A DNA stretch of 64,000 nt from Dehalococcoidia bacterium (GCA_965220505.1 CBDCQE010000003.1:890106-954105), one strand, 5' to 3'. Positions 36,059 to 60,594 are shown, numbered from the stretch's first letter. The notes: generated from the letters alone by a model not told the origin. Translations and numbers: made by a program.

Positions 36059-36089
36059 TAATAGCGCCCATGGAAGGGAGTACTTCGCG

Positions 36090-40626: not shown

Positions 40627-42063
40627 CTACTGTCGGTTGCCCCAGTCAACGTAGCGCGTGCTTGCCATAGCGCTAATTTGCAGTTCTTGACAGAACCCGG
40701 GTCGCTCGGCTCGATGAACCTGCCGGTCCGGCTTTGGGCCCGGCGGGCCGTTCTCCAGGGCTTCCGACAATATTCGGCCGTCCATGTCTGACGCTTCCGC
40801 GTCCAATCCCAGCAGATGCAGTATGGTGGGAGCGAAATCGATGTTGCCGGTTGGCGTCTCGATGGTGGTTTCACGCCGGAACGATGGCCCGCTGGCCAGG
40901 CCGGTGTTGCGCAGTTCGTGTTGGCTGAGGCTGCCGTGCTGACCCTGACCGATTGCGCCTCCGGTGGCGGGAGCGTAACCGGGGTAACCTGCCGGATTGT
41001 CGAGACTTTGCCAAGGGAACGACATGAGCAGGTCCGGCGAGCGCGGCCCCTCGCATCCCAGCAGGTCCAGGGGCAGCGTGCCGGCCGGTTTCCCGACACG
41101 CTCCGACGCGAAAAACGGGCCACACCAGGGTTGGGAAGCCAGCCACGTGGTCAGCGCCTCGGCCGTCCGGGGATCGCCTCCGTTGACGTACAGCAGCGCA
41201 GACCCGCCGTTGGCAGCCACCGCGACGCCACCCGGAAGATCGATCGTCGGAAACTCGGCTTCACGCAGCAATTGCTCCACCCGGACCACCTCGCTGATCG
41301 TCGAATAGCCGTGGTCCGATGTAACGAATATGTCGGTTGTGTCGGCGCGCCCGTTCACCCGCAGCCAGTCCAGCAACTCGCCGAACTCTGCATCCGCTTC
41401 AGCGAGGGCTTGCGGAGTCCTGCCCAGTCCGACGCCGTCCTCGTGCTGCGTCTTGTCCGGTTCCGACGACCACAGCAGGGCCACCGTCGGGTCGCGTTCG
41501 GGCAGGACGAACTCGGTCAGGATACGTCGCGCGTGCACCAAACGCGCCGTGTTGGGCAGGTCCTGCGCCGGCCATTCGCCGAACCTTTCCGCCAGTTCAG
41601 CGTACAGCGGGCGCGGTAACGCGAAATCGGGATGAATGGTCGCGCCGCCGGAGGTCGCCGCATTGGGATTGTGCATGTAGGCGTTGCCGCTGGTCCCGGT
41701 GCCGATGGCGAAGTATTCCATGCTGTGCCGTCCCAACAGATCGGCCAATGTCGGGACCAACAGCGCATGTCCGGTGGTGTCCACAACCTCCTGCAGCGTG
41801 GGTTCCATGGCGGGGATCACACGGTGCGGATCGAAGTCGCGGCAGAGGAAGGTGTTACCGGCGAGGCCGTGTCGGCCGGGCAGGCAACCAGTGACGAGAC
41901 TCGACGCGTTGACCCGGGTCACCGTTGGGAACACCGGATGATGGTTTGCGAAAGTCACGCCGCCGTTGGCGAACTTTGACAGGTTTGGCATCAGTTCCGG
42001 CGTAATCTGCGCCGGCTGGAGGCCGTCGAACACCATAATCAATACCCTGCGTTGGACTGCCAT
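40627..42063 (-). CDS. alkaline-phosphatase-superfamily nucleotide pyrophosphatase/phosphodiesterase (NPP) family protein
   Basis: Start at ATG 42063 (GAGGAGG RBS). Motifs VFDGLQP, FPTVTRVNASSLVTG and TSDHG. Confidence 0.8.
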   Translation of the reverse strand: MAVQRRVLIMVFDGLQPAQITPELMPNLSKFANGGVTFANHHPVFPTVTRVNASSLVTGCLPGRHGLAGNTFLCRDFDPHRVIPAMEPTLQEVVDTTGHALLVPTLADLLGRHSMEYFAIGTGTSGNAYMHNPNAATSGGATIHPDFALPRPLYAELAERFGEWPAQDLPNTARLVHARRILTEFVLPERDPTVALLWSSEPDKTQHEDGVGLGRTPQALAEADAEFGELLDWLRVNGRADTTDIFVTSDHGYSTISEVVRVEQLLREAEFPTIDLPGGVAVAANGGSALLYVNGGDPRTAEALTTWLASQPWCGPFFASERVGKPAGTLPLDLLGCEGPRSPDLLMSFPWQSLDNPAGYPGYAPATGGAIGQGQHGSLSQHELRNTGLASGPSFRRETTIETPTGNIDFAPTILHLLGLDAEASDMDGRILSEALENGPPGPKPDRQVHRAERPGFCQELQISAMASTRYVDWGNRQ

Positions 42064-42080
42064 TGTGCCTCCTCTCGTGC

Positions 42081-43040
42081 TCAATTTACCGCCGGCTGGG
42101 ACCACCCCAGCAATTCGCGGATCACTCGCAGTGATGTCTCAACGTCGACGCCCCCAGGTTCGGCCACCCGGACAGGCCCGCCGTTTTCGTCCAGCACCCG
42201 GCAGCGGCCCCACAGGGCGCGGTCGTCGGTGGTTGTCGAGTCATCTACCGTCATCGTCACCGAGCGAAGCTTGATGGCGTGCGGGGCTATTGCCGCGACC
42301 AGCGTCAGCGGGTCGTACATATTGAACCGCTCGCGCGTGGCTCCTTGCCGGAACCAGCTCGCGAGCAACCGTTCGGCCAGGATGCCGGCCGCGGAGGACG
42401 GGCGCGCGCCGGCCACATCATCGGAAGTCAGGAAAACCTGTCGGCACGGCGCCATGTCGATCAGAGTTAGCGGAAACCCCGATTCCATCACCAGACGCGC
42501 GGCCGTCGGATCACTGTAAAAGTTGAACTCCGCGTGCGGTGTGATGTTTCCCGGAGTGTCCACCGCGCCGCCCATGACCAGCAGGCGCTTGGCCAGCGGT
42601 AAAACCGTTGGATGATCCCGGTGCAGCCGGGCAAGGTTGGTAAGGGGTCCCAGGGCAATCACAGTGACGGCGCCCGGATTCGCCCGAAGGGTTTGGGCCA
42701 GGGACTGCACCGCGCCAGTATCGGATGTGCGCGACGTCGGTGGAGGCAGGGGGTGGGTAAGGCCCTCTGCGGAGTGGACATCACGTGCATAGGCGAAGCG
42801 GCCGCGAACCGGCCGAGTGGCTCCTTTGGCTACAGGGATGTCAGTGCGCCCCAGGCTTTCCAAAATAGCCAGTGCGTTTCGGGTTGCCGGCCCGATCGGG
42901 ACGTTACCCGCCGTTGTGGTCAGGCCAATAACGTCGATCTCAGGCGATGACAGCGCCATCAGTAACGCTATGGCATCGTCGACACCGGGATCGGTGTCGA
43001 TCACCATCGGTTCTGGAACCACGGGGTGCGGAGCCGTCAT
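42081..43040 (-). CDS. inosine/uridine-preferring nucleoside hydrolase family protein
   Basis: VIDTDPGVDDAIALLMAL motif. Confidence 0.85.
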   Translation of the reverse strand: MTAPHPVVPEPMVIDTDPGVDDAIALLMALSSPEIDVIGLTTTAGNVPIGPATRNALAILESLGRTDIPVAKGATRPVRGRFAYARDVHSAEGLTHPLPPPTSRTSDTGAVQSLAQTLRANPGAVTVIALGPLTNLARLHRDHPTVLPLAKRLLVMGGAVDTPGNITPHAEFNFYSDPTAARLVMESGFPLTLIDMAPCRQVFLTSDDVAGARPSSAAGILAERLLASWFRQGATRERFNMYDPLTLVAAIAPHAIKLRSVTMTVDDSTTTDDRALWGRCRVLDENGGPVRVAEPGGVDVETSLRVIRELLGWSQPAVN

Positions 43041-43044
43041 GCCG

Positions 43045-44079
43045 TCAGCCTGGTTCCAGGATGACCGAATGGCAGTACGCGCGTATGGCGCGCGCCGACG
43101 AGTACTTGAACCGGAAACCGGCGGACTGTTTGAATTTGGCTGAGCTCATTATCAGCGGATGTTTCGACAACTGCCTACCCATCGAGTTGAACGCCCGGCC
43201 GGCTCCGGCGTGCCTGGGCAAACCGGGCACGCGGCACCATTCCAGGATGTCCAACGAATCTACCACCCCGTCGCCAGCCACATTGAACACCCCGTCCAAG
43301 CGCTGCGTTATCACGCGTTCTATCGCTCGCGCGAGGTCATGTTGATGGAGGAACTGGAGCGGAAAGCTGCGCTTCCGGTTGGCGGTAACAGCCGGCAGCA
43401 ACAGCTCATCCGCCGCGGGACTCGCGTGATTGGTGCTGACTGACATAGCCGCGCGCAGCACGGCGACCTTCATTTCAGCATCGCCGTTGGCTGCTGTCGA
43501 TGGATCGTCGTCGGCCGCCGCCGGCAGGCTAGGCTCGGCGTCGGCGAGGTAGCGGTGTTGGCGGCTGGGATTTGTGGCGGTCCTCTCCGTAACGGGGACG
43601 GGGTTGTCGGCATTTGCGCCATAGACACGAACGTCCGACAGGTAGACGAATTGACGCACTCCCGCGATGCGGGCCGCGCGGAGCCAAAGTTGCGCGTCGG
43701 CACAGAACTGTTCGGGGTTGGGTCCATCGTAATAGCTTCCCACGTGGATCAGCGAATCGACCCCTTCCAGTTGCAACACGTCCGGAATGTCGGCGATCGT
43801 CAGTTCGTGCCCCTCCAGGAACATGTCCCAGGCCTTCTGCTGCATGAAGTCCGGAATGTCGGACATGGTGAGGATGCCGCCCACCCGATTTTGGGCCAGG
43901 CGGTAGGTGGAAATGCGTTCCACCGGCCAGCGCAAGGGGCGTTCTGCGATTGCCACCAGCCAACAGTCGGGTCGTTCCCGCTCCAAGTAGAGTAGCATCT
44001 GCGCCCCGAAGCTGGATGCAGCGCCCACCACGCCGATGACGTGGGAAAACTCGCGCGAGGTTCCAGGGGAGGTGCTCAT
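43045..44079 (-). CDS. NAD-dependent epimerase/dehydratase-like protein, degenerate motifs
   Basis: Rossmann-like GVVGAASSFG and SDVRVYG. The YxxxK position reads YLADA (Lys absent). It carries an acidic/Ala-rich insertion (PAAADDDPSTAANGDAE). Confidence 0.65.
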   Translation of the reverse strand: MSTSPGTSREFSHVIGVVGAASSFGAQMLLYLERERPDCWLVAIAERPLRWPVERISTYRLAQNRVGGILTMSDIPDFMQQKAWDMFLEGHELTIADIPDVLQLEGVDSLIHVGSYYDGPNPEQFCADAQLWLRAARIAGVRQFVYLSDVRVYGANADNPVPVTERTATNPSRQHRYLADAEPSLPAAADDDPSTAANGDAEMKVAVLRAAMSVSTNHASPAADELLLPAVTANRKRSFPLQFLHQHDLARAIERVITQRLDGVFNVAGDGVVDSLDILEWCRVPGLPRHAGAGRAFNSMGRQLSKHPLIMSSAKFKQSAGFRFKYSSARAIRAYCHSVILEPG

Positions 44080-44132
44080 TATTCAGCGCGTCCTGATCCC
44101 GTTTAGTCGACGGTCTCGTCCATCAGACCCAG

Positions 44133-44795
44133 TCAGCGGCGATCCCGAAACATTTGCATCTCAGTCGCAACGGCGTCTTCGGGCAAGGGGGCGGCGGCTC
44201 GTGGGCCGAAGTTGCGGGCCAGCACGAAGATCTGCGCCAGCCGCTCCACTAGGTCGCAGACTTCCAGCGCTTCCCAGATGTCCGGCCCGACGCCAACGGC
44301 GCCGTGGTTGCGCAGCAGGGCGGCGTTCCGGTCGCCCAGCGCGGCGTAGGCCTGCTCGGCCAGTTCCTGCGTTCCGGGAAAGGCGTACTTGCTGACCTTG
44401 ATCGGACCGCCGATGGTCATCAGCATTTCGTCGATCAACGGCGGAATGTCCCGCCCGATGACCGCGGCCACCGAAGCGTAAATGGAGTGAGTGTGCGCCA
44501 CCGCCTGCACATCGGCCCGCTGGCGATAAATCTCGAGGTGCAACCGAGTCTCCGAGGACGGCGGCATGGGTGCCGGAGACACCGGCTCGCCATCCAGGTT
44601 CACCACCACCAGTTCATCCGGCTTCAGCCGGTAGTAGGGATGATGCGTGGGGGTTACCAGCAGCAGGCTATCATCCCCCGAGCCCGTCAAGCGCAGACTG
44701 GTGTTCCCGGAATATGCGCCCACCAGGCCGCGCCGGTACATCTCGCGGGTGGCCTCGGTGAGGGTGGCGCGCTGTTCAGCCCATTGGTCGGACAC
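44133..44795 (-). CDS. class II aldolase/adducin family protein (MtnB/FucA-like)
   Basis: GTG 44795 with a GGGGAGGA RBS, overlapping the hpnE stop by 20 nt. Motifs GNTSLR and HTHS. Confidence 0.75.
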   Translation of the reverse strand: MSDQWAEQRATLTEATREMYRRGLVGAYSGNTSLRLTGSGDDSLLLVTPTHHPYYRLKPDELVVVNLDGEPVSPAPMPPSSETRLHLEIYRQRADVQAVAHTHSIYASVAAVIGRDIPPLIDEMLMTIGGPIKVSKYAFPGTQELAEQAYAALGDRNAALLRNHGAVGVGPDIWEALEVCDLVERLAQIFVLARNFGPRAAAPLPEDAVATEMQMFRDRR

Positions 44796-46215
44796 TATTT
44801 TCCTCCCCGGTGACTGCGGCGGAGCCGAAACGCGACATAACCGCTGCAGCGGCATTATATCCGCTGATGATTGCCCCCTCCATAGTCGAAGGCCATCCCG
44901 TGTCCGTCCATTCCCCCGCCAAAAAGAGATTGGGCGAAGCAGTGACCGGACCAGGCCGGAGGCGCTGCGCCCCGGGAGTGCACCGGAAAGTGGCGTTTCG
45001 CTGTTTCACTACAGTCGACTTCAGCAGCTGTGCATCACGGGCTTTGGGGAACGCGGCGCGCATCTCTTTGGCGATGCTGTTCATCAGGTCCGGTCTCGGC
45101 AGGTCGATGTGTTCCCAGGCTGCGCTGATGGACACCGTCAACGACTGGCCACCGTGCGACCAGTTACCGCCTCGGATTAGCGAATCGTTGAAAACCCATT
45201 GCAAGGGGTTGTCGAGAAAGTAGCAGAACTCCCCTGCCATCACCGGTCGGTCGTATTCCAGATGGACGTTGACGATGGGCGAGGATTGCAAGCCGGTCAA
45301 CGAGTTGAAGGGCTCTTTTTCCGCCAGATGGCCCGGGATCAGGCTGGGCAGGATCCAGAACGGCACCGTGCTCACGTAGGCATTGGCTGCGAACACCTGG
45401 TGGTTCCCCGCCGCGACGCGCTGCACGGATCCGTTGGTATCAGCCTCGATGGCGCGAGCCGGACAACCGAGCAGCGTGCGCACGCCCAGCTTGTGCAGGT
45501 AGGCTTCGCTGGGCACGCCCAGAGCCTGTGCCAGGGACGCCTTGGGATACCCGAGGTTGATCTCGCGTCTGCCCCGCAACAAGCCGTCCTGGGTGATCAT
45601 CAATCCCATCGCCGCGCTGACGTCCCGGATGTTGTCGTTGAGAGTTCCCTCGATGATCACGTTCCAAAGGTTGTAGATGCACCGTTCGGACTGGCCGTGG
45701 GCTCTCAGCCAGTCGTAAAACGAGGTTGTTTCCATTTCAGGCGCGGCACGGTCGGCCCGCATCGCGGCAATCACCCCGCGGATCGCGCGTAACTTGTCAC
45801 CCAGGCTCAGGTGGCGATAGGTGACGAAAGCCGCCAGCAGGTGGGCTGGGGCGGGGCCGCCGAGGCCGCAGAGTTTGCCCCCGCGCCCGGCGCGGTCATA
45901 GACATCGACGTTCAGCCTGGGCTGCAAATGCCACCGGTCGCTGACCCCGATACGCTCCAGGAACTCGATGAGGTTGCGACAGGCGCCCACGAACACGTGC
46001 TGCCCGTTGTCCAACTCCCGCTCGCTCTCCGGGTCGACAAACGAGAAAGCTCGACCTCCCAGGGAGTTGCGAGCCTCGAGCAGCGTAACCCGCCAACCGG
46101 ACTCGGCGAGCCTGGCAGCCGTGGCGATGCCCGCCAGTCCGCCGCCAATCACCAGCGCCGACGGCTGGGCATCGCCGCGGCTATCGGTCACTTCATCAAG
46201 GGGCCCGTGAGCCAT
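44776..46215 (-). CDS. hpnE: hydroxysqualene dehydroxylase (FAD-dependent amine-oxidase family)
   Basis: VIGGGLAGIATAARL ... LLEARNSLGGRA dinucleotide-binding motif. Positioned after hpnC-hpnD. Confidence 0.85.
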   Translation of the reverse strand: MAHGPLDEVTDSRGDAQPSALVIGGGLAGIATAARLAESGWRVTLLEARNSLGGRAFSFVDPESERELDNGQHVFVGACRNLIEFLERIGVSDRWHLQPRLNVDVYDRAGRGGKLCGLGGPAPAHLLAAFVTYRHLSLGDKLRAIRGVIAAMRADRAAPEMETTSFYDWLRAHGQSERCIYNLWNVIIEGTLNDNIRDVSAAMGLMITQDGLLRGRREINLGYPKASLAQALGVPSEAYLHKLGVRTLLGCPARAIEADTNGSVQRVAAGNHQVFAANAYVSTVPFWILPSLIPGHLAEKEPFNSLTGLQSSPIVNVHLEYDRPVMAGEFCYFLDNPLQWVFNDSLIRGGNWSHGGQSLTVSISAAWEHIDLPRPDLMNSIAKEMRAAFPKARDAQLLKSTVVKQRNATFRCTPGAQRLRPGPVTASPNLFLAGEWTDTGWPSTMEGAIISGYNAAAAVMSRFGSAAVTGEENSVRPMG

Positions 46216-47123
46216 GCCCTGGCCATCAGCCCCAGCTTGGCGCCTTTGCTCAAGCTGATGCGCTCTTGAAACACGTCGTATCCGGCGGCTTCGATCTTGT
46301 TGAGCACTCCGCCGTAGATGAGGCCCAGGGCAGCCGGGCAGGCGCGGGATCTCGGCGAGAGGTACGGGAGCAACCGCCGGCCGCTGGCGAAGTACTCCCG
46401 GGCGCGGTCGATCTGGAATTGCATCAGGTTGGCGAAACCGTCGGTCACTGCTCGATTTTCCAAGTCCGCTTCAGTTACTCCAAACCGGTCCAGCTCGTCC
46501 TGTGGCAAATACACCCGACCGAACTCCCAGTCCTCAAGCACATCCCGGCAGATGTTGGTCAGCTGCATGGCCAACCCGAGGTCGATAGCGCCCTGGTGCG
46601 CTTCTTCGCGGCCGCGATATCCGAAAATGTGGATGCAAATCAGCCCGACCACAGAGGCTACCTGGTAACAGTAGGCGCGCAATTCTTCGAAATTAGCGTA
46701 CCTGGTCTTGACCAGGTCGGATTCCACGCCGTTCAGGACTTCCTGAAAATATTGCTCGGGGATGTTGTAGGTTGCCGCCACATCGGCTAACCCGATGAAC
46801 AGCGGCTGGTCTGCGTTGCCGGCGTAAGCCTGAGTCAATTTACGGCGCAGATGCTCGATGCGCTGCAGCTTCTCAGCGTGGTATCCTTCGGCGTCGACCG
46901 AGTCATCGCAATACCGGCAGAACGTGTATGCAACGTAGATGGCCCGCCGCTGCCGGGCCGGCAGCGTCAGGAAGGCGAAATAAAAATTGCGGGCTTCGCG
47001 CCTGGTTACCCGGCGGCATTCCTCATAGGCCGCTGCCAAAGCCTGCGGTGACGGTGAGGATGCTGTCGATAATGGGGTCGTCATGGGGCTTGCTTCAAGG
47101 TTTGGGCAATCCGTACCCGGCAC
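46188..47123 (-). CDS. hpnD: presqualene diphosphate synthase (squalene/phytoene synthase family)
   Basis: FYFAFLTLPARQRRAIYVAYTFCRYCDDSVD (DxxxD) motif. The start could be ATG 47084. Confidence 0.8.
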   Translation of the reverse strand: MPGTDCPNLEASPMTTPLSTASSPSPQALAAAYEECRRVTRREARNFYFAFLTLPARQRRAIYVAYTFCRYCDDSVDAEGYHAEKLQRIEHLRRKLTQAYAGNADQPLFIGLADVAATYNIPEQYFQEVLNGVESDLVKTRYANFEELRAYCYQVASVVGLICIHIFGYRGREEAHQGAIDLGLAMQLTNICRDVLEDWEFGRVYLPQDELDRFGVTEADLENRAVTDGFANLMQFQIDRAREYFASGRRLLPYLSPRSRACPAALGLIYGGVLNKIEAAGYDVFQERISLSKGAKLGLMARAWLTGPLMK

Positions 47124-48093
47124 CCAGCTTGTTTCCCAGCCAGGCAGACGCCAACAGCCACGCCTTCTGCCGTTTCGACAACGCGGGCCGGCGGCTCAGG
47201 ACGTCGTATCCCTGCCGGCGAATGGCGTGGAGGACGACCACGCCGCCCCGTGTGAAGAGGGCCACCGGCAATTGGGCCCGACGGTGCAGAGAATTAACCA
47301 GAGGCGCGCCTTGTTGGAACATGCTCATGGCGATTTCGCATTCGTACCGCAACAGCGCGCGGAATGCATCGGTGGCCGCGCCGTTCGCGATGTCGCCCTC
47401 GGTGACACCGAACCTCCTCATGTCGGTTTGGGGGAGATAGATCCGGCCTCGGTCCCGATAGTCACGGCTGACGTCCTGCCAGAAATTGGTGAGTTGCAGG
47501 GCGGTGCAGGTGTGGTCGGCGAGTAGTTGCCGCCGGCGATCAGCGTACCCAAACAGGTACAGGTACAGGCGTCCAACGGGGTTCGCGGAATGGCGGCAAT
47601 ACTCCACCACGTCATCGAGTGTCTCGAAACGCCCGAATCCCTGATCCATCAAGTTGGCGCGGATGAGGAGTTGGAACGGTTCCCTGGGGATGTCGAAAGA
47701 GGCGACCGTGTGCTGTACCGCGATTGATATGGGGTGCGTAGGTTGACCGGAATAAATCGCCTCCAGCTCGTCTTCCCACCACGCCAGTTGGCCACGGCGG
47801 TAGGCGGTGATCGTGTCGTCGAGTTTGCCGTTCTCAACTGCGGTTGCAACCGGTTCAGAGGGCAGGGATTCGTCGCCCAGGTCGTCCACCATCCGGCACC
47901 AGGCGTAGATTGCATAGACGTGCGGCAGTTTTTGCCTGGGCGTGATCCAGCCGCCGACGTTGAAATTCTCGTAGTGGCTGCGGGCCAGCGTTTCGCAGTA
48001 TCGGTACGCCTCGGCCAGCGTCACCGGCTCCGCGGATGCGATACTGCCGCCCCCGTCGTTGGAGGGGTTTCGCTCTTCAACTGCGGCTGACAT
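47095..48093 (-). CDS. hpnC: hydroxysqualene synthase (squalene synthase HpnC)
   Basis: SHYENFNVGG and YAWCRMVDDLGDE motifs. First gene of the hpnCDE trio. Confidence 0.8.
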   Translation of the reverse strand: MSAAVEERNPSNDGGGSIASAEPVTLAEAYRYCETLARSHYENFNVGGWITPRQKLPHVYAIYAWCRMVDDLGDESLPSEPVATAVENGKLDDTITAYRRGQLAWWEDELEAIYSGQPTHPISIAVQHTVASFDIPREPFQLLIRANLMDQGFGRFETLDDVVEYCRHSANPVGRLYLYLFGYADRRRQLLADHTCTALQLTNFWQDVSRDYRDRGRIYLPQTDMRRFGVTEGDIANGAATDAFRALLRYECEIAMSMFQQGAPLVNSLHRRAQLPVALFTRGGVVVLHAIRRQGYDVLSRRPALSKRQKAWLLASAWLGNKLGAGYGLPKP

Positions 48094-48116
48094 GTTGCTC
48101 GACGTCCGGAGGTCGC

Positions 48117-48560
48117 CTACTCGCCCACGATCTGGACCATGACCTCGCGTGGCCGCGGGTGGTCCAACTCAATGAAGAAAATACTCTGCCACTGACCGAA
48201 GGGCATCTTCCCATCGATGAGCGGGATGGTTTCGCTCGACCCCAGCATCAAATGCTGCAGGTGCGCATGACCGTTGGGAGATTCCTCCTCGGTCATGTTG
48301 ACCGTGCGGACCGAGAAATCGTTGTGCCGGTATTCCCCGAAACGGGGGCACATCTTCTCCAAAAAACGCGTCATGTCTTCAATCAATAACGGTTCGTTCT
48401 CGTTGATGATCACGGCCGCGGTGGTGTGGCGGGAGTACACCACTACGAACCCGTTGCTGACGCGGGCCTTCCCGACACAACCCTTGACCCAGTCAGTGAT
48501 ATCGATGAACTCGGGCGCGCCGGTGGTGTCGACTTTCAGGGAAAAATGTTCGGTTTTCAT
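48117..48560 (-). CDS. yjbQ: YjbQ/UPF0047 family protein (secondary thiamine-phosphate synthase-like)
   Basis: Start at ATG 48560. Motifs VVVYSRHTTAAVIINENE and NGHAHL. Confidence 0.75.
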   Translation of the reverse strand: MKTEHFSLKVDTTGAPEFIDITDWVKGCVGKARVSNGFVVVYSRHTTAAVIINENEPLLIEDMTRFLEKMCPRFGEYRHNDFSVRTVNMTEEESPNGHAHLQHLMLGSSETIPLIDGKMPFGQWQSIFFIELDHPRPREVMVQIVGE

Positions 48561-48598
48561 GAGCTGCACTCTGTAGGGGAGTGTGATGAACGGAAACC

Positions 48599-50701
48599 TT
48601 ATGTGGGATGAGTTGAGGTACGAGACTGCGGTTCGATAGGCCGAGAACCGTTGCCCCGGGGTCCGCCGAGCGGGTCTTCTTGAACCCGGCACGCCCGATA
48701 GCGAGCCAAAGCTATCAGCGGCCAGGTGTTTCGATAAAGGTGGTAGTTGATCATGAAACCCGCCGATAGCTCAGCACCCTGAAATCCGCGTTCGCCGGCC
48801 TGGGGGATTTTGTCTACTCGTTCGCCCTTCAGGTACCCCGGAAACCCGGTGCCGGTGAAATACGGCTCGTCCCAGTTGCCCCCCGCAAGTTGTGATGCCA
48901 GCAAGTATGAAACGCCACGGTGCGTGGCACGGTGGTCGCCGTATCCGGCGGCTACCAGCGCAATGATAGCCCAAGCGGTCTGGGAAGCGGTACTTGGCCC
49001 AACACCTCGTTGCGTCGAATCTATATATGACGCGCAGGATTCGCCCCAACCTCCATCAGGATTCTGATGGTCAATAAGCCACTGCACCGCTCGTCGAATG
49101 TAGGGCTGGCGCATATCTTCGCCTGTAGCCTCCAACGCCGGCAGGACCGCTCCCAAACCGTAGACATAGTTTACGCCCCAGCGGCCGAACCAACTACCAT
49201 CATCCTCTTGCTCGTGCCGGAGATAGCGATACGCCTGTTGCAGGAATGCCTGGTCGGTTTTGTACCCGAGTTTGCCGTACATTTCCAAAACATGAGCGGT
49301 TACGTCCGCGCTGGACGGGTCAAGAACCTCGCCAAAATCGCTGAACGTCAGGGCCGTGACATAACCGTGATTGTTGTCCTTGTCGAAGGATGCCCACCCA
49401 CCGTCCCTGCTCTGCATCCCCCGCACCCAGTCGAGCGCGCGAGAGATTGAATCCTGGCGCAAACGGTCCTCAGCGCCCGGCAATTTGCCAAGGCGCAGGG
49501 CGAGCACGACCTCGGCGGTATCGTCGATATCCGGATAGCAGTTGTTGTGAAATTCGAAAGCCCACCCGCCCGGTTGCAGTTGTGGCGCCTGCACCTGCCA
49601 GTCACCACCGACCAGTATCTGCTTGTCGACCAACCAACGGGTGGCCGATTCCAGCATGGGATCATTGGGAGGCAATCCGCTTTCGGCCAGCCCCTGAACG
49701 ACCAGACACGTGTCCCACACCGGTGATATGCAGCCCTGAATGGTCCAGTGGTCGCCCTTTTGGATGGAGAAACCGTCCAGGCCGGCGAATCCCCGGGACA
49801 TGGTGGGGTTCTCGTTATCGAAGCCGCACACGCTCAGGGCGATCAGGCTGTACACCCAGGGGGGCTGAATCCCGCCCCAGCTCCCGTCGTCTTCCTGATG
49901 GTCCAGGATCCAACGAATGGCTTTGCGTTCCGCGAAATTGCGCAAAGGGTTAGCCGGAATCCGATCGTAAGTCTTCCCCAGCAACCGCTCGGCCAGATGC
50001 ACCAGCCGGGGCAAATTGAACCCGGGTGGTGCGGGTATGGAATAATCGGTTGCAGACCGACCGTCGGGAAACAGTTCGTCGATGGCGTGCTCCGGCGCAA
50101 CGGGCCGAGCGGTACGGCGCGACAGCACGATGGACAAGGGAACAATGCATCCTCTTGCCCAACTGGCAAAACGGTAGATGCTCAACGGCGCCCAATCAGG
50201 CAGCAATATCATCTCAATCGGGAGGCTCGGGGTGCCGGTCCATTCCCACTGTCCGAACAAGGCCAGCCAAATGCGCGTGAACATCCGGGTCTGCGGCACC
50301 CCTCCCCGATCCAGTGCGAACTGCCGGGCGCGACTCATGTGGTCCGATTGCGGGTCTTCGCCGCACAGTTTCAGCGCGAAATAGCATTCCACAGTGGTGG
50401 ACAGATCGCCGGGAGCGCCGTAATAGATCGCCCACGATCCGTCGTCAAGCTGCTTGCTCCGGAGATAATTGACGATGTGCCGCTCGCGCTCGGGATTCCG
50501 ATGTCCCAGGAACTGGGATAGCATCACATACTCGGCTTCCATGGTGTTGTTCGATTCCAGCTCGCCCCACCAGAAGCCATCGGGGTCCTGAATCCGCCGG
50601 AAGTAGCCTTGAAGTCGCTCGATCGATGCGTCCAGCGCTTCAAGCGACGGTACTTCGATACGAGCGTCGGTCTCACTGCGGACGATTTCCTGAACAACCA
50701 T
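48599..50701 (-). CDS. shc: squalene-hopene cyclase
   Basis: DIDDTAEV (DxDDTA) catalytic motif and multiple QW repeats (DGSWxG, DGGWG). Confidence 0.95.
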   Translation of the reverse strand: MVVQEIVRSETDARIEVPSLEALDASIERLQGYFRRIQDPDGFWWGELESNNTMEAEYVMLSQFLGHRNPERERHIVNYLRSKQLDDGSWAIYYGAPGDLSTTVECYFALKLCGEDPQSDHMSRARQFALDRGGVPQTRMFTRIWLALFGQWEWTGTPSLPIEMILLPDWAPLSIYRFASWARGCIVPLSIVLSRRTARPVAPEHAIDELFPDGRSATDYSIPAPPGFNLPRLVHLAERLLGKTYDRIPANPLRNFAERKAIRWILDHQEDDGSWGGIQPPWVYSLIALSVCGFDNENPTMSRGFAGLDGFSIQKGDHWTIQGCISPVWDTCLVVQGLAESGLPPNDPMLESATRWLVDKQILVGGDWQVQAPQLQPGGWAFEFHNNCYPDIDDTAEVVLALRLGKLPGAEDRLRQDSISRALDWVRGMQSRDGGWASFDKDNNHGYVTALTFSDFGEVLDPSSADVTAHVLEMYGKLGYKTDQAFLQQAYRYLRHEQEDDGSWFGRWGVNYVYGLGAVLPALEATGEDMRQPYIRRAVQWLIDHQNPDGGWGESCASYIDSTQRGVGPSTASQTAWAIIALVAAGYGDHRATHRGVSYLLASQLAGGNWDEPYFTGTGFPGYLKGERVDKIPQAGERGFQGAELSAGFMINYHLYRNTWPLIALARYRACRVQEDPLGGPRGNGSRPIEPQSRTSTHPT

Positions 50702-50728
50702 GGTACTTGCGCCCCCAAATGTGAAACG

Positions 50729-51730
50729 CTAAAGGTAGCCGTAATCCCTGAACCAGCGGACCGCTTTTTCCAGCGCTACCTCAACCGGGCTCTGTGGCAA
50801 ACCCAGTTCCGACACCGCTTTTTCGCTGCTCACGTACATCGGGTGCTTGGTGACTTTGATCGCTTCTACCGGAACCGTTGGGGGACGGCGCAGGAGGGTG
50901 CCTTCGACGAATTCGTCGAAGTAAGCCACTCCCAGAATGGCCCAATGCGGGATGCGAAACTTAGGCGCGCGCCGTCCGGTGATCCCCGACAGGATGTCGA
51001 AAATCTCCTTCAAAGTGAGATTGCGGCACCCGAGGATGTACCGCTCCCCTGGTATGCCGCGTTCCATCGCCAGTATGTGACCTTCGGCAACGTCCGCAAC
51101 ATCGACCAAGTTCATTCCCGTTGCGATGTAGCCGGGAGTCTTGCCGCGGGCGAAGAACAAGGGAATTTGCCCGGTCGGTGTCGGTTTGACGTCCCATTCC
51201 CCTACCGGAGCGCAAGGATTGACTACCACGACCTCCATCTCGGCGTCATTGGCCGCCAAAGCGATCTGCTCGGTGGCATACTTGGACTGTTTGTAGTATC
51301 CGATAAGCAAAGCCGGTCGAGGCGGCATGTCTTCAGTGCCCAGGTGATCCGGGTCGTTCGACCCGTTTTCAGGGATGCCTATGGTGGCGACCGAGCTGGT
51401 GAAAACCACTCTTCGCACTCCGGCCCGCCGCGCAGCGTCGAGCAGGTTTACCGTCCCGACCACGTTCGAGCGGTACATTTCGCGGGGGCGGCGGGACCAG
51501 AAGGAGTAAATAGCCGCGCAGTGATACACAGTCTCGCAGCCGGCGGCAGCCCGCCGCACCGATTCGCTATCCAACAGGTCGCCGGTTACTTGCGCCACTC
51601 CCGTTTCTCGGATGGCCAGGTCGATGGCAGATGGCCTCACCAGGGCGCGGACATCCTCGCCGCGGGCCCATAACGCGCGTGCCAGGTTGCCGCCGATAAA
51701 GCCGGTGGCGCCCGTTACCAGCGTGGTCAT
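50729..51730 (-). CDS. hpnA: hopanoid-associated sugar epimerase (NAD-dependent epimerase/dehydratase)
   Basis: MTTLVTGATGFIGGNL motif. Lies between shc and hpnG. Confidence 0.8.
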   Translation of the reverse strand: MTTLVTGATGFIGGNLARALWARGEDVRALVRPSAIDLAIRETGVAQVTGDLLDSESVRRAAAGCETVYHCAAIYSFWSRRPREMYRSNVVGTVNLLDAARRAGVRRVVFTSSVATIGIPENGSNDPDHLGTEDMPPRPALLIGYYKQSKYATEQIALAANDAEMEVVVVNPCAPVGEWDVKPTPTGQIPLFFARGKTPGYIATGMNLVDVADVAEGHILAMERGIPGERYILGCRNLTLKEIFDILSGITGRRAPKFRIPHWAILGVAYFDEFVEGTLLRRPPTVPVEAIKVTKHPMYVSSEKAVSELGLPQSPVEVALEKAVRWFRDYGYL

Positions 51731-52470
51731 GGTGCCAACCCGGCCGCGCCGGATGATGGAGTGGGCAGACCATACAACGCGCCCGACACGCAGTCGGCCA
51801 GCCGAGACCGTGCGATCTGAGCCTGATGGGCAAGTCGGATCAGGCCGGGCACACTGCCTGGATGCGTCGCCATCCCGCGCAGGACATTGATAATCCCGTT
51901 TCCCATTTCACCGAGGTAGCCTGGTAGCTCATCGCCTGCGGTGTCCAGAACTGCCCGGACCGAAGCGAACGGTATCCCGTGAGCGGCGGCTACCCTCGCG
52001 GCCCAGTAGTCTTCCATGTTGACCGATAGTGATCCCGTCTCTGCGCGCAGGATGGATTTCGTTTTAACGCCCGCTATTGCCGTCACCGTTGCCGAGGGAC
52101 CGCCGACGAAGCGGGTTGCACTCCGGTCAGCCCAAGACCTGATCCGGCCGGCCAGTGTTGGATCGGCTGAGATGGGCCCCGGAAGGTCAATGGAGTGAAA
52201 TACCTCGGCGACGTGCAGGTCGCCGGTCAGCAAACCCGGGTCGGTCGCGCCGCAGAATCCGATCAACGCTATCGCCGACGGCGATTCGGCGGCCACTGCC
52301 TCTATGCCCGCTTCGGTGCTTTGCCGGCCCACGCCGACAACACGCAACATCATGCCGCTTCCGTGCGGGTCGCCGATCGCCCGGCGCACTCCGGCGAGTT
52401 CCGTGGCCATGGGTGCAACTACGGCAAGCATAGAAGTAACAAGGGCGACCAACCTGAACCGGCCGGCCAT
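51727..52470 (-). CDS. hpnG: hopanoid-associated phosphorylase/nucleosidase (PNP/MTAN family)
   Basis: PNP_UDP_1-like (LIGFCGA, MEDYWAA). 4-nt overlap with hpnA. Confidence 0.75.
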   Translation of the reverse strand: MAGRFRLVALVTSMLAVVAPMATELAGVRRAIGDPHGSGMMLRVVGVGRQSTEAGIEAVAAESPSAIALIGFCGATDPGLLTGDLHVAEVFHSIDLPGPISADPTLAGRIRSWADRSATRFVGGPSATVTAIAGVKTKSILRAETGSLSVNMEDYWAARVAAAHGIPFASVRAVLDTAGDELPGYLGEMGNGIINVLRGMATHPGSVPGLIRLAHQAQIARSRLADCVSGALYGLPTPSSGAAGLAP

Positions 52471-52536
52471 CGTTCGCGTTGTCTTTCGGAATGTCCGCCA
52501 CCTATTGTGTCGAACGGATGCAATGCCAGGGCACGT

Positions 52537-53613
52537 CTAGCCGACGCTGATCCCTCCCTTGTGGGCCGCGCCGGATTTGATGAACGTCACCCATTCCCGG
52601 GGTTTGCCAATTGCGTTGAATATCGTTGCCGATTCGAAACCGCAATGCATCATGCAGTTGTTGCAGCGAGGGTCCCTCCCCACGCCGTATTTTTCTTCCC
52701 ACAAGTGGGGTTCGTATAGTTCATCAATCTCGGTAGTGTGTTCATCGGCCAGAGGATAACAGGGTTTGCGCCAGCCCATAACCGTGTAAGTGGGATTGGA
52801 CCATGCAGTACACTGGTATTCTCGCTCCCCCCGGAGGAAGTTCAGGTACAGCGGGTTGTTATAGAACCGCATTCCCTCCATCCGGGTCGGGTCCAGCAGG
52901 TCGCGGAACACGTTCCTGGATTCCTGCCGGGTGAGGAACAGATCCTGGTCGGGAGCGTCTTCAAAGTCGTAACCGGGCGAAATCATCGACCCTTCGACGC
53001 CCAGGTCGCCGACGTAGCGGAACATCTCCCGTAAGTCCTCGACGTCGCTGTTGCGGAATACGGTGGTGTTGGTGCAGACGCGATAGCCCCGGTCCACCGC
53101 CATTTGGATGCCGTCCACCGCGCGCTTGAAAACACCGGAGCGCGCTACAGATTCGTCGTGCTTTTCCTCCATGCCGTCCATGTGGATGACCCAGCAGAAG
53201 TATTTGGACGGCGGTATTTTGTCCAGCATGCGCGGCAGCAGCAGCGCGTTGGTGCAGCAATAGACGAAGTATTTTTCGTCGACCAGCGTGTTGATGATCT
53301 CGTCGATTTTGGGATGGATCGTCGGCTCGCCGCCGGCGATGGACACGATGGGCGCCCCCGACTTGTGCACGGCGTCCAAGGCTTCTGCCACGGGCATCAT
53401 TTGGTCCAGGACGCCCCGGTATTCGCGTATCCGGCCGCACCCGATGCAGGCCAGGTTGCACATCTCCAAGGGCTCCAGCATGGTGACCAGGGGGAAACGC
53501 TTGCGGCCACGAAGCCGGTTCTTGAGGATGTACCAGCCCATGCGAACGCCCAGTTCCATCGGGCGCTTGGCCGGTTTGACAACGGTGCCTGGATCTTTAT
53601 TTGTCCGTACCAT
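52537..53613 (-). CDS. hpnH: adenosylhopane synthase, radical SAM
   Basis: CNLACIGC (CxxxCxxC) motif and a conserved C-terminal extension. Confidence 0.85.
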   Translation of the reverse strand: MVRTNKDPGTVVKPAKRPMELGVRMGWYILKNRLRGRKRFPLVTMLEPLEMCNLACIGCGRIREYRGVLDQMMPVAEALDAVHKSGAPIVSIAGGEPTIHPKIDEIINTLVDEKYFVYCCTNALLLPRMLDKIPPSKYFCWVIHMDGMEEKHDESVARSGVFKRAVDGIQMAVDRGYRVCTNTTVFRNSDVEDLREMFRYVGDLGVEGSMISPGYDFEDAPDQDLFLTRQESRNVFRDLLDPTRMEGMRFYNNPLYLNFLRGEREYQCTAWSNPTYTVMGWRKPCYPLADEHTTEIDELYEPHLWEEKYGVGRDPRCNNCMMHCGFESATIFNAIGKPREWVTFIKSGAAHKGGISVG

Positions 53614-53646
53614 GCTCGGTATCCCCGTATTTCATCGCCAGCGTGT

Positions 53647-54663
53647 TCAGAATAGACGGTAAGCCATGAAGTCAATCAGGTTTTTTGCGTCCTCGTTGGC
53701 CCAGGGCGGCAGTTCCAACATGGCCAGAGCAGCCCGCCCTTCTTCAGCGGTCGCATCAGTGAGTTCGTCGGTTTGGCGGTCGGCGCCCAGGTCATCGAGT
53801 ATGTTGAGAACGCGATTTACATCGTCCTCGTCGAGCTCCTCCTGGGAGTACAGGCGCAACAACTCTTCACGATTGACCCCTTCGGCGTACTGGAAGGCGT
53901 ATACGATGGGGTAGCTTTTTTTGCGCTGGACGATGTCGCTGTCCGTGGACTTTCCGGTAATGGCTTCGTCGCCCCAAATGCCCAGATAGTCGTCCCTGAT
54001 CTGGAACAATCGCCCGATGGCCCGGCCGAACCGCGCCACGCCTTCCAGGGTCTCCCGCTCATCCGTGGCGATGGTTGCCCCGATGACCATGCTGCTGCGG
54101 ATGAGCGCTCCGGTTTTGAGGGCGATCATGTCCAGGTATTCGTCAGATGCAATGACTTCGCGCCGCTCGAACTCCAGGTCACGGCACTGGCCTTCAATCA
54201 TTTCCAGGTAGCTTTGCGTGAGGAGTTGAGAGACGCGGATGGTGGTGTCCGGCGGCACGTTGCCGTCGATACTCAAAGTGCTCAGGTCTCCCAACGATTG
54301 CATCGCGTCGCCGGCCACCAGAGCCTGTTCCGTGCCCCAGACTGCCCACACGGTGGGCTGGTGCCTCCGTTCCAAGCCCTGGTCCTGGATGTCGTCGTGA
54401 ACCAGCGAAAAATTGTGGATGAGCTCCAGCGCGGCGGCGGCCGGGGCAGCATGGCCGGGGTCTCCCTGGAGGGCATCGCACGCGAACATGCAAAGCGTGG
54501 GACGGAGCGCCTTGCCCTGGGACGCGGGAGTAGGCGCCGGAATGCCCGTCCGGTCCGACCAACCTAAATGATACCGCAGCAACGTGTTGACCGCGTGATC
54601 TTCCAGAGGCGGTACTGCGGCCGCTAACGCGTTTTCCAAGTGTTCTCGATAACGGTCAAACAT
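53647..54663 (-). CDS. polyprenyl diphosphate synthase (FPP/GGPP synthase family)
   Basis: LVHDDIQD and RDDYLG aspartate-rich motifs. The alternative upstream ATG 54756 would add 31 aa. Confidence 0.8.
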   Translation of the reverse strand: MFDRYREHLENALAAAVPPLEDHAVNTLLRYHLGWSDRTGIPAPTPASQGKALRPTLCMFACDALQGDPGHAAPAAAALELIHNFSLVHDDIQDQGLERRHQPTVWAVWGTEQALVAGDAMQSLGDLSTLSIDGNVPPDTTIRVSQLLTQSYLEMIEGQCRDLEFERREVIASDEYLDMIALKTGALIRSSMVIGATIATDERETLEGVARFGRAIGRLFQIRDDYLGIWGDEAITGKSTDSDIVQRKKSYPIVYAFQYAEGVNREELLRLYSQEELDEDDVNRVLNILDDLGADRQTDELTDATAEEGRAALAMLELPPWANEDAKNLIDFMAYRLF

Positions 54664-54842
54664 GGCGGGCAGACTTGGCGCTTCTTTTCGCGCCCGGTCG
54701 TTGCCCGGCCGACCCAACCGGCTAGCCTCCGTGGAGGCTGTTGGTGTTGTGCCCATTGACGAAGCCTGCCGTGCGGTGAGGATGACGAGGTAGGCGCGGC
54801 GCGCGGTTTCCGGGTAGGGCCCGTCCGTTCCAACGTTGGCAA

Positions 54843-54871
54843 AATGTAGCGAACGCCGGCAATCATGTCAA
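54843..54871 (-). promoter_or_regulatory. sigma70-like promoter candidate for the hopanoid array (TTGACA-17 nt-TACATT)
   Basis: The minus strand reads cTTGACAtgattgccggcgttcgcTACATTtt, upstream of both candidate starts of the polyprenyl synthase. Confidence 0.45.
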
Positions 54872-55196: not shown

Positions 55197-55478
55197 TCAG
55201 GTCAATCCGCCGGCTACCGCGGGAACGATGCTGATCTCGTCTCCGGACTTGATAGACGTCCGGAGGCCCTGGTCGAACCGGATATCCTCGCCGTTGACAT
55301 AAATGTTCACGAAGTAGCGCAGTTCGCCTTCTTCGTCCAGCAGCCGTTCTTTGAAGCCGGGATAATCGCTCTCCAGCGTGTCTATCATTTGGGACAGATC
55401 GGCCACGTCCAGCTCGACTTTGTCCGCGCCGCCAGTCATCCGTCGCAGTGGGGTGGGAATGCGTACCGTTACGCCCAT
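55197..55478 (-). CDS. MoaD/ThiS-family sulfur-carrier-like protein ending GG-LT
   Basis: Start at ATG 55478 (AGGAGGA RBS). Beta-grasp-like, 93 aa, C-terminus ...ISIVPAVAGGLT. Confidence 0.7.
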   Translation of the reverse strand: MGVTVRIPTPLRRMTGGADKVELDVADLSQMIDTLESDYPGFKERLLDEEGELRYFVNIYVNGEDIRFDQGLRTSIKSGDEISIVPAVAGGLT

Positions 55479-55572
55479 CGGAATGTCTCCTCCTGCCATG
55501 CTGTCATGCCGTGCCACGCTTTGCGCTACGGCAGATTAGTTTACATATCCGGCTCGTGGTCCGGTTTACCGG

Positions 55573-55824
55573 TCAGCCTTCGATCACATCGCCTGCGATG
55601 GGGTCGACGCGCACGCCGGTGTTTCCCACCCAATCGAGGCCGCGCTGGATTTCGTCATCCGATCCTTCCAGCTCAAGGATGACCCATCCCACATCCCGAC
55701 GGACGTCGGCACGTCGGATGTTGGTGACGATATCAAAGTCACGCCCGAGCCGGTAGATAATGGGCTCGCGCACCATTTCAGCCGAGAACGTGAACCGCAC
55801 CCGCTGCTTGGCCATGGCCGTCAC
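55573..55824 (-). CDS. stand-alone NIL-domain protein
   Basis: 83 aa. FDIVTNIRRADV ... GWVILELEGSDDEI pattern, as in the C-terminal NIL domain of MetN-type ABC ATPases. Confidence 0.6.
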   Translation of the reverse strand: MTAMAKQRVRFTFSAEMVREPIIYRLGRDFDIVTNIRRADVRRDVGWVILELEGSDDEIQRGLDWVGNTGVRVDPIAGDVIEG

Positions 55825-57110
55825 ACCTGCGCCGCCATGCGGTTTTCCAGAGCCGCCTCGAAGGAACCCATCATCGGTTTGACCAACAAGGGGTTCACCA
55901 CTTCTTCGACCGCTTCCTGGGTCTTCAGGCCATTGCCGGTAATGTAGGCCACGGTCAATTCGTCGGGGCCAATCGCACCGGTCTCCGCCAGGTACTTCAG
56001 GGTGGAAACCGTGACGCCGCCAGCGGTCTCGGTGAATATGCCTTCCGTTTCGGCCAAAAGTTTGATGCCGTCAACCACCTGGGATTCCGGCACAGCGTAC
56101 CCGCTGCCGTCAGACTCGCGAATGACGCGCAGGGCGTAGATCCCGTCCGCCGGATTGCCGATAGCCAGAGATTTCGCAATGCTGTCGGGCCGCACGGGGC
56201 GGATCTGGTTCTGCTGATTTTCCCAGGCGGACACGATGGGACAACAGCCCGCCGCCTGCGCCATGTGCATCCGGGTCGTGACTGCCGGGTGATGCACCGT
56301 GTTCTGGTCAGCGCCGAAGGGCATAGGCGATACGCCGTCAAGCAGACCCAGGCAGGCCAGTTCGTTGAATCCTTTCCAGATCTTGGTGAACATCGCCCCG
56401 GAAGCCGATGGGACAACAACGTGGTCCGGCACACGCCAGCCGAGCTGCTCGGCCACTTCGTAACCCAACGTCTTGCTGCCCTCGGCATAATACGGCCGCA
56501 TGTTGATGTTGACGAAGGCCCAGTGGTAGTTGTCGCTTACCTCGCTGCACAGTCGGTTGACTTCGTCGTAGGTGCCTTCGACCGCTACCAGCGTGGGGTT
56601 GTAGACTGCGGCGCCGATGACCTTCCCGCGCTCCAGGTCGGCGGGTATAAAAACCACTGCGTCGACGCCGGCGCGTGCGGCATGCGCGGCTACGCTGCAA
56701 GCCAGGTTTCCGGTGCTGGCGCAGGCCAGCGTCTCGTATCCGAATTCAACCGCCTTCGTCGCGGCAACCGACACCACCCGGTCCTTGAAAGAGAAAGACG
56801 GGTTCACGCTATCGTTCTTGATGTACAGGTTGTTCAGGCCCAGCCGCTTGCCCAGGTTTTTGGCCTTCAGCAGCGGGGTATATCCGGCCATGATGTCCAC
56901 CGGATCGTCTGCCTCCGCCGGCAACAGATCCTGGTAACGCCAGATGCTCAACGGGCCGTTGGTGATGCGCTGGTGCGTGACCACCTCGGAAATGGTCACG
57001 TAGTCATAGATGACCTCGAGCGGGCCGAAGCAGAAGTCGCAAACGTTCAGGGGTTCGCCCGGGTATTCCCGGCCGCATTCCCGGCACTTTAATCCTTTGA
57101 CAAACGCCAC
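55821..57110 (-). CDS. thrC: threonine synthase-family PLP enzyme with an N-terminal zinc ribbon
   Basis: GTG start with a GGAGG RBS. CRECG ... CDFCFGPLE zinc ribbon. PLP-Lys motif PSFSFKDR. Confidence 0.8.
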   Translation of the reverse strand: MAFVKGLKCRECGREYPGEPLNVCDFCFGPLEVIYDYVTISEVVTHQRITNGPLSIWRYQDLLPAEADDPVDIMAGYTPLLKAKNLGKRLGLNNLYIKNDSVNPSFSFKDRVVSVAATKAVEFGYETLACASTGNLACSVAAHAARAGVDAVVFIPADLERGKVIGAAVYNPTLVAVEGTYDEVNRLCSEVSDNYHWAFVNINMRPYYAEGSKTLGYEVAEQLGWRVPDHVVVPSASGAMFTKIWKGFNELACLGLLDGVSPMPFGADQNTVHHPAVTTRMHMAQAAGCCPIVSAWENQQNQIRPVRPDSIAKSLAIGNPADGIYALRVIRESDGSGYAVPESQVVDGIKLLAETEGIFTETAGGVTVSTLKYLAETGAIGPDELTVAYITGNGLKTQEAVEEVVNPLLVKPMMGSFEAALENRMAAQV

Positions 57111-60582: not shown

Positions 60583-60594
60583 GGGTGATATTAG

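Follow-up and report, generated by a model that had tools for sequence, protein, structure and literature searches.

Hopanoids, a major class of bacterial membrane lipids, also rank among the molecular fossils most often used. The radical S-adenosylmethionine (SAM) enzyme HpnH grafts the 5'-deoxyadenosyl group of SAM onto diploptene, and the adenine is removed afterwards (PMC12583986). The enzyme that converts ribosylhopane to bacteriohopanetetrol (BHT) and the roles of HpnA, HpnB, HpnL and HpnM were unassigned as of late 2025, and a dedicated search of alphaproteobacterial clusters gave no further candidates (PMC12583986); the view of the first-pass annotation of this DNA, that the steps after HpnH and HpnG are genetically unassigned, still holds. 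We analyzed 64,000 nucleotides from a Dehalococcoidia bacterium (GCA_965220505.1 CBDCQE010000003.1:890106-954105), the whole of which is called the window here. In it, a hopanoid (hpn) gene cluster continues 3' of hpnE with genes for a class II aldolase (ald), a degenerate protein with the fold of the extended short-chain dehydrogenases/reductases (SDR), named psSDR here, an IUNH-family nucleoside hydrolase (iunh) and an NPP/alkaline-phosphatase-superfamily enzyme (npp).

The canonical hpn clusters of Zymomonas, Rhodopseudomonas palustris, Burkholderia cenocepacia and Streptomyces coelicolor likewise hold shc, hpnH, hpnG, hpnA, hpnC-D-E and a polyprenyl synthase gene in one direction. The window differs from them in the yjbQ gene before hpnC, the four extra 3' genes, a strongly divergent HpnG and the Dehalococcoidia/SAR202 host. 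None of hpnI, hpnJ, hpnK, hpnO, hpnN, hpnP and hpnR was found within its 64 kb. What appears to be new here, and is well supported by the comparisons below, is a conserved accessory module on a known kind of hopanoid cluster.

Parts of this module resemble pathways of nucleoside and sugar metabolism. In the dihydroxyacetone phosphate (DHAP) shunt (DrdK-DrdI-DrdA, or MtnP or MtnN/MtnK-MtnA-Ald2), as in the window, a nucleosidase or phosphorylase of the purine nucleoside phosphorylase (PNP) family occurs with a DrdA-like aldolase, and the substrate class, a 5-substituted 5-deoxyribose from the SAM adenosyl group, would be alike. However, the 13 products of the array include neither MtnK/DrdK nor MtnA/DrdI, in place of which relatives have an FGGY kinase and dehydrogenases. 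The genes also lie within a lipid operon, and IUNH and NPP are foreign to the known shunt. Loci related to the window pair an FGGY kinase with a class II aldolase-fold enzyme, as FucK-FucA, RhaB-RhaD and AraB-AraD do, and the window aldolase retains the Glu and His motifs of FucA, but the window has no FGGY kinase, sugar isomerase, transporter or regulator with it and its genes are placed after hpnE. In the futalosine pathway (MqnE, then MqnB), a radical SAM enzyme likewise adds an adenosyl radical before a PNP-family hydrolase removes the base; acceptor and downstream chemistry are different, and no mqn genes occur in the window. The top NCBIfam match of the window aldolase is a nucleoside-degradation enzyme of the haloarchaeal non-carboxylating pentose bisphosphate pathway, ribulose-1-phosphate aldolase (NF053831). 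Its score of 137 bits is far under the cut-off of 300, no equivalog being reached, and ribose-1-phosphate kinase, ribose-1,5-bisphosphate isomerase and ribulose-1,5-bisphosphate phosphatase are absent.

Our literature search found no description of this module or of SAR202/Dehalococcoidia hopanoid clusters. A survey from 2025-26 reports only low conservation of squalene-hopene cyclase (SHC) in Chloroflexota and mentions neither such a module nor YjbQ. Papers on SAR202 treat hopanoid-like compounds as substrates, not products, and sponge SAR202 genomes are reported only with antiSMASH 'terpene' clusters.

Conservation of the array

Thirteen co-directional open reading frames (ORFs) run without a break on the minus strand from 54756 to 40627 (Table 1), and one operon of an SAR202-type Dehalococcoidia bacterium is probably the best explanation for them. 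From ids, the polyprenyl diphosphate synthase gene, to npp, the junctions measure 33, 66, -4, 27, 38, 23, -29, -28, -20, 53, 4 and 17 nt when starts backed by relatives are used (yjbQ ATG 48560, aldolase GTG 44795, NPP ATG 42063); the GTG gives a 220-aa product, the called protein P0217. The ORF table and these lengths bear out what had been described: gaps of 66 nt or less or overlaps, a 20-nt overlap of hpnE and ald, and spacings of 4 nt before iunh and 17 nt before npp. No terminator-like site was found between hpnE and ald in a scan of 39.5-55.6 kb, in agreement with the earlier statement that the array runs past hpnE. The near-consensus promoter noted at the 5' end is the best sigma-70-like match of the same scan and sits in the sole long intergenic gap, and one relative (L061) retains it at an equal position with one mismatch. 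Such sites are not above chance in the 16 kb scanned (4 observed against 3.9 expected). The promoter-like site follows a terminator-like hairpin (55144-55127) that closes the preceding operon, and 32 nt separate the end of the array from a convergent gene. The gene names given in the first-pass annotation agree with Pfam and NCBIfam, HpnD marginally and HpnG with a score far below its cut-off.

Genome loci were anchored on psSDR (alignment A1), and gene order was tabulated by tblastn in the 55 loci retrieved. The counts refer to 45 of them, with psSDR identities of 39-95%. The order hpnH-hpnG-hpnA-shc-yjbQ-hpnC-hpnD-hpnE-ald-psSDR-iunh-npp is kept in 41 of the 45. Two of the four exceptions are cut by contig ends, and the others are the loci L016 (see below) and L037. 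In L037, ald-psSDR-iunh occur alone, beside a DDE transposase gene and restriction-modification genes; thus, in one genome with a split array, these three genes moved together, which counts in favor of the role proposed below. As a control, the genes downstream of npp were compared. They are syntenic only in the 18 closest loci, and about 25 more distant loci retain the array yet have other downstream neighbors, so the array travels as a unit and mere inertia of local synteny was rejected as the cause of the linkage. Since the link to hpnE persists in 41 of 45 genomes despite this turnover of the flanks, the distal genes are not chance neighbors. Linkage in related genomes was the check named beforehand, and it is conserved in Dehalococcoidia/SAR202. 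Across relatives the junctions are short or overlapping, including stop-start overlaps with hpnE. This comparison shows that, at the level of gene order, the distal genes belong with the squalene/hopanoid operon.

In a species-level genome collection, all relatives of psSDR are annotated as metagenome-assembled genomes of Dehalococcoidia, SAR202 or Chloroflexota. Several have bin names that we take to resemble those of sponge-microbiome studies.

All four distal genes are under purifying selection. In pairwise comparisons of the window with three relatives, the ratio of nonsynonymous to synonymous substitution rates (dN/dS) was 0.06-0.09 for the aldolase, 0.07-0.12 for psSDR, 0.14-0.16 for IUNH and 0.12-0.15 for NPP (overall 0.06-0.16). 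The values for the proximal genes were 0.08-0.10 for SHC, 0.025 for HpnH, about 0.3 for HpnG and 0.011-0.015 for YjbQ. The hpnE gene of one locus (L026) has an in-frame stop, which is either a sequencing error or the mark of a pseudogene.

Table 1. Promoter-like site and genes of the array, in order of transcription.
Feature	Position	Strand	Supporting match or remark
Sigma-70-like promoter, TTGACA-17-TACATT	54843..54871	-	10/12 match; about 87 nt upstream of the ids start codon
ids, polyprenyl diphosphate synthase, presumed farnesyl diphosphate supply	53647-54756	-	Pfam polyprenyl_synt 195 bits; no NCBIfam equivalog cut-off reached
hpnH, radical SAM adenosylhopane synthase	52537-53613	-	TIGR03470 428 bits, cut-off 225; Pfam Radical_SAM and DUF3463
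hpnG-like, PNP/UDP-family phosphorylase or nucleosidase	51727-52470	-	Best NCBIfam match HpnG (TIGR03468), 89 bits, cut-off 187
hpnA, intact extended SDR	50729-51730	-	TIGR03466 394 bits, cut-off 368
shc, squalene-hopene cyclase	48599-50701	-	TIGR01507 747 bits, cut-off 431
yjbQ (UPF0047)	48117-48560	-	Pfam UPF0047 122 bits; TIGR00149 120 bits
hpnC	47095-48093	-	TIGR03464 about 295-296 bits, cut-off 250
hpnD	46188-47123	-	TIGR03465 271.9 bits, marginally below cut-off 278.6; best match
hpnE	44776-46215	-	TIGR03467 411 bits, cut-off 283
ald, class II (FucA/DrdA-type) aldolase	44133-44795	-	Pfam Aldolase_II 170 bits; start overlaps hpnE stop by 20 nt
psSDR, degenerate extended-SDR-fold protein	43045-44079	-	Pfam Epimerase 19 bits; no NCBIfam model
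iunh, IUNH-family nucleoside hydrolase	42081-43040	-	Pfam IU_nuc_hydro 244 bits; 4 nt past psSDR
npp, NPP/alkaline-phosphatase-superfamily enzyme, predicted cytoplasmic	40627-42063	-	Pfam Phosphodiest (PF01663) 134 bits; last gene

The distal enzymes and their relatives

More distant Dehalococcoidia have ids-hpnH-hpnG-hpnA-shc-yjbQ-squalene synthase and then a canonical SDR (L046-50). In others (L051/52), ids-yjbQ-hpnCDE precede genes for a 2-hydroxyacid dehydrogenase, an FGGY kinase, a class II aldolase and two SDRs. The comparison was then extended to 80 loci on metagenome contigs, anchored on HpnE (alignment A2). Directly 3' of hpnE, three of these loci (L069, L076, L080) encode a 2-hydroxyacid dehydrogenase, FGGY kinase, aldolase, SDR and IUNH, and two (L070, L075) the same set up to the SDR. 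Shorter sets after hpnE are FGGY kinase and aldolase (L093, L101, L140), SDR and IUNH (L065, L118, L137), aldolase and SDR (L074) and SDR alone (L063, L064, L066, L067, L072, L085). The set of the window, with NPP, was found only in L061, L062 and the genome clade. In L051, the FGGY kinase gene (7397-8906) is split into two overlapping ORFs, by a sequencing error or as a pseudogene.

At least one module gene follows hpnE in every evaluable locus that contains shc/hpnH (53/53). Among loci with at least 5 kb of upstream sequence and no shc or hpnH, a module gene is present in 7 and none in 9. IUNH is found in 46 of 48 hopanoid-type loci against 0 of 11 evaluable loci without shc and hpnH; all these locus counts are phylogenetically non-independent, and the metagenome contigs are without taxonomy. 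The module of these marine Chloroflexota draws on a gene pool of 2-hydroxyacid dehydrogenase, FGGY kinase, class II aldolase, SDR and nucleoside hydrolase. By this comparison, the window carries a remodelled local form of an older module, in which kinase and dehydrogenase were lost, the SDR was inactivated and NPP was gained. Because relatives have an FGGY kinase and a 2-hydroxyacid dehydrogenase at the equal site, the chemistry is more likely of the kinase/aldolase type than a simple dephosphorylation and reduction.

The aldolase has its best Protein Data Bank (PDB) match in 6BTD (E 3e-30), with the Ser-Ser-Glu (SSE) and His-x-His (HTH) motifs, which hold the acid and metal residues, aligned. 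This entry is the structure of DrdA, which acts as 5-deoxyribulose-1-phosphate aldolase in the salvage of 5-deoxyribose (PMC6079011). Among the matches listed in the homologue search of the aldolase, all had identities of at least 81% and none was an outgroup.

The psSDR protein was described in the first-pass annotation as a degenerate epimerase-like protein, which agrees with its Epimerase score of 19 bits and the loss of motifs. It reads VGAASSFG where TGxxGxxG is expected and where its syntenic relatives have TGASGYIG. When it is aligned to 2Q1W and the syntenic SDRs, the catalytic Ser is lost (LSS to LSD), as is YxxxK (Y to R, K to D); syntenic SDRs of other lineages retain the glycine motif, Ser and YxxxK. 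Since these residues are gone, psSDR is not a plausible reductase. It was therefore rejected as the missing ribosylhopane reductase, and the earlier suggestion of this Rossmann protein as a candidate tailoring enzyme is not supported. An AlphaFold2 model (pLDDT 73) has the extended-SDR fold and matches GalE, WbmH and DFR structures in Foldseek (probability 1.0, TM 0.5-0.6, 13-17% identity). The family is tiny, with 25 representatives at E<=1e-30 among 1.84 billion and three full-length end-to-end matches, and is essentially confined to the hpnE-linked context. Exact look-ups of the window psSDR and of P0216 gave no record. At residues ~57-98 (43780-43910), most of the window clade has a low-confidence insertion of about 32 residues, …ILTMSDIPDFMQQKAWDMFLEGHELTIADIPDVL…, that neither the L045-type subclade nor any canonical syntenic SDR has.

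In IUNH, the N-terminal Ca-binding motif DXDXXXDD is intact (DTDPGVDD, aligned to 4KPN) and nearly invariant in orthologs. The leaving-group His (HDP) is replaced by Tyr (YDP), which is invariant in 45 orthologs; in other lineages the corresponding residue of the module IUNH is Cys or His. A uniform non-canonical catalytic signature for module IUNHs was thus rejected; the residue is Y, C or H by lineage.

The DG, Thr nucleophile (PTvT-N), DHG and HG motifs of NPP align to autotaxin, with the metal ligands kept. Enzymes of this family are typically secreted or periplasmic. The N-terminus of the window enzyme, MAVQRRVLIMVFDG, leads directly into the catalytic core, and no signal peptide was recognized by eye. 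The nearest outgroup homologues share 57-58% identity with it and are encoded, in three independent contexts, by the final gene of tkt-tal-pgi-gnd-zwf operons, which suggests that the substrate is a sugar phosphate and that the array recruited the gene late. On other Dehalococcoidia contigs (L056-L060), an NPP/alkaline-phosphatase-family gene is last in such operons, a position that 6-phosphogluconolactonase often occupies in other bacteria.

Two of the proximal genes deserve comment. hpnG evolves much faster than any other gene of the operon, with identities of 41-76% in comparisons that give 87-98% for HpnH. Its product gave no match in a PDB sequence search and only a weak one to futalosine hydrolase (TIGR03664, 34 bits). 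It is not a decaying gene replaced by IUNH, because its catalytic-type residues, in the M-E-D-Y motif and at D176, do not vary among 48 orthologs and its dN/dS is not near 1. At the other extreme, yjbQ is the most constrained gene of the array, with 95-100% amino acid identity among close relatives. Its place between shc and hpnC had been called unusual, but yjbQ directly before hpnC is the rule in this lineage, being found in more than 100 loci and without exception in those examined, squalene-only operons included. This placement gives a concrete pathway context for the orphan UPF0047 family.

Proposed role of the module

According to the curated family models, ids, HpnD, HpnC and HpnE would make squalene, SHC would cyclise it, HpnH would add the 5'-deoxyadenosyl group of SAM to give adenosylhopane, and HpnG would remove the adenine. 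Because of the group that HpnH grafts, adenosylhopane is a 5'-substituted 5'-deoxyadenosine. The HpnH/HpnG pair is the operon's only step with a nucleoside or pentose, and the enzyme classes of the module handle 5-deoxyribose (DrdK/I/A) or fucose-type deoxy-sugars; both points favor processing of the hopanoid head group. We put at about even the chance that the distal module processes the ribosyl or ribosyl-phosphate head group of adenosylhopane-derived hopanoids, that is, that it acts on the C5 ribosyl unit which HpnH attaches. In such a scheme, IUNH might remove the base hydrolytically, beside or in place of HpnG. If HpnG acts as a phosphorylase, NPP could remove or transfer the C-35 phosphate to give ribosylhopane, and the intact SDR HpnA or a housekeeping reductase might reduce ribosylhopane to BHT. 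The aldolase could act on a keto-phosphate of the side chain, with a DrdA-like retro-aldol reaction yielding DHAP and a C32 hopanoid aldehyde. psSDR may have lost catalysis and been kept as a non-catalytic partner. A fuller version of this scheme, in which an ancestral module (IUNH, SDR, 2-hydroxyacid dehydrogenase, FGGY kinase and aldolase) took adenosylhopane through a keto-phosphate to DHAP and the C32 aldehyde, and the presumably sponge-associated clade was rewired around an NPP-type phosphatase (phosphoribosylhopane to ribosylhopane, toward BHT), is tentative and, taken as a whole, unlikely.

The first-pass annotation had proposed that the added enzymes, all with chemistries that act on ribosyl or ribulosyl-phosphate moieties, are candidates for side-chain tailoring. 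Linkage and selection speak for this idea; the degenerate Rossmann protein does not fit it, and the relatives point to kinase/aldolase-type chemistry instead. Loci without shc/hpnH bear on it as well. They have a PNP-family gene between ids and yjbQ whose best NCBIfam match is HpnG (96-100 bits), at the same level as in hopanoid-type loci, which counts for head-group processing. An identity of this gene as a methylthioadenosine (MTA) nucleosidase or futalosine hydrolase is not supported, HpnG being the best match.

Several observations weigh against head-group processing. In canonical hopanoid producers, BHT is made although their clusters lack the distal genes (PMC12583986). In the sister lineages L046-50, L064 and L072, which have hpnH and hpnG, the SDR is the only module gene, so C35 hopanoids as such do not require the module. 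Conversely, FGGY kinase and aldolase also follow hpnE where shc/hpnH are absent within 10 kb, and in one of these cases (L140) clpB/dnaJ and heme genes clearly delimit the operon. The window array has no kinase or isomerase to make a ketose-1-phosphate for the aldolase, for which reason we place low confidence in its putative C-C cleavage of a keto-phosphate side chain. L016 has a 3.8-kb insertion (6306-9327) with two opposite-strand ORFs between ald and psSDR, the sole interrupted array among the 45. These ORFs gave no PDB match and have no likeness to the L037 transposase; one contains several copies of a CWG motif and resembles RCC1-type repeat proteins. The non-independence of the locus counts adds to these points.

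It is possible, at a rather low probability, that the module salvages SAM by-products (5'-deoxyadenosine/5-deoxyribose or MTA) from abortive turnover of HpnH or other radical SAM enzymes, by a modified DHAP shunt. DHAP and acetaldehyde would then be formed by a nucleosidase or phosphorylase, a kinase (in relatives) and the aldolase in turn, and co-expression would protect HpnH. The presence of hpnH within the operon, DrdA as the best solved homologue of the aldolase, and a nucleosidase-kinase-aldolase logic that mirrors DrdK/I/A and MtnP/MtnA/Ald2 (PMC6079011) all agree with this. However, HpnH incorporates the adenosyl group and does not release it (PMC12583986), no MtnK/DrdK-type kinase or MtnA/DrdI-type isomerase occurs in the array, and the window clade has lost the kinase entirely. 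Detoxification also lacks an obvious reason for a position 3' of hpnE, even where hpnH is absent. We regard it as quite improbable that an unrelated nucleoside or pentose catabolism, with IUNH freeing ribose and NPP and aldolase processing pentose phosphates, was fused to the hopanoid operon in an ancestor and kept by co-transcription without a common substrate. Such an origin would suit the pentose-phosphate operons of the closest NPP outgroups, the classic ketose catabolic pair of FGGY kinase and class II aldolase-fold enzyme seen in relatives, and the nucleoside-degradation ribulose-1-phosphate aldolase as top NCBIfam match. It is at odds with a module that stays 3' of hpnE through gain and loss of members while both flanks turn over, with conserved stop-start overlaps at hpnE, with an SDR subfamily essentially confined to this context, and with the lack of any ribokinase, transporter or regulator beside the genes.

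Supply of precursors is very improbable. The pentose of nucleosides would be converted to DHAP and glyceraldehyde 3-phosphate for the methylerythritol phosphate (MEP) pathway and squalene, much as dxs/isp genes occur in some hopanoid clusters. DHAP would indeed be the aldolase product by family chemistry, and the association with ids and hpnCDE holds even where a locus lacks shc/hpnH. But no MEP-pathway gene lies in the array, the flux argument is weak, and IUNH and SDR track hopanoid-type, not squalene-only, loci. Processing of the adenosylhopane-derived head group thus remains the reading that we prefer.

Other features of the window and significance

An Rfam scan of the window found a tRNA only. 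It is tRNA-Thr(CGT) (57268-57343, minus strand), directly upstream of a gene for a pyridoxal phosphate enzyme of the threonine-synthase family (55821-57110, minus strand). This thrC-like gene opens a stretch (~55200-57110, minus strand) that continues with two ORFs, one small and NIL-like, the other MoaD/ThiS-like with a terminal Gly-Gly, and is followed by the hairpin 55144-55127; we presume that the set resembles thiocarboxylate-dependent sulfur amino-acid synthesis of the MetM/MetO or CysO type. A class-III aminotransferase gene adjoins a gene for a major facilitator superfamily transporter at 25730-28584 (minus strand), ~13 kb from the array; HpnO, the aminobacteriohopanetriol enzyme, is a class-III aminotransferase. 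At 59002-61047 (minus strand) a tryptophan-halogenase-like flavoenzyme gene adjoins a PIN-domain gene, and at 34175-37244 (plus strand) a gene of the phosphoenolpyruvate mutase/isocitrate-lyase family comes after plsX and a FabG-like SDR gene.

The array and its relatives provide a conserved set of candidate enzymes that is directly assayable: the aldolase, nucleoside hydrolase and NPP, and in relatives the FGGY kinase and dehydrogenases. Abundant uncultured Dehalococcoidia of the SAR202 type, some of them with genome names suggestive of sponge microbiomes, are likely producers of C35 hopanoids, which would affect the source assignment of marine hopanoid signals. If the aldolase does truncate the side chain, sedimentary C32 hopanoids would need re-interpretation. 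Under the fuller scheme above, the route through the C32 aldehyde would give C32 hopanols and hopanoic acids an origin in biology instead of diagenesis, and marine Chloroflexota of the SAR202 type would contribute, so far unrecognised, extended or truncated hopanoids to the ocean and to sponges.

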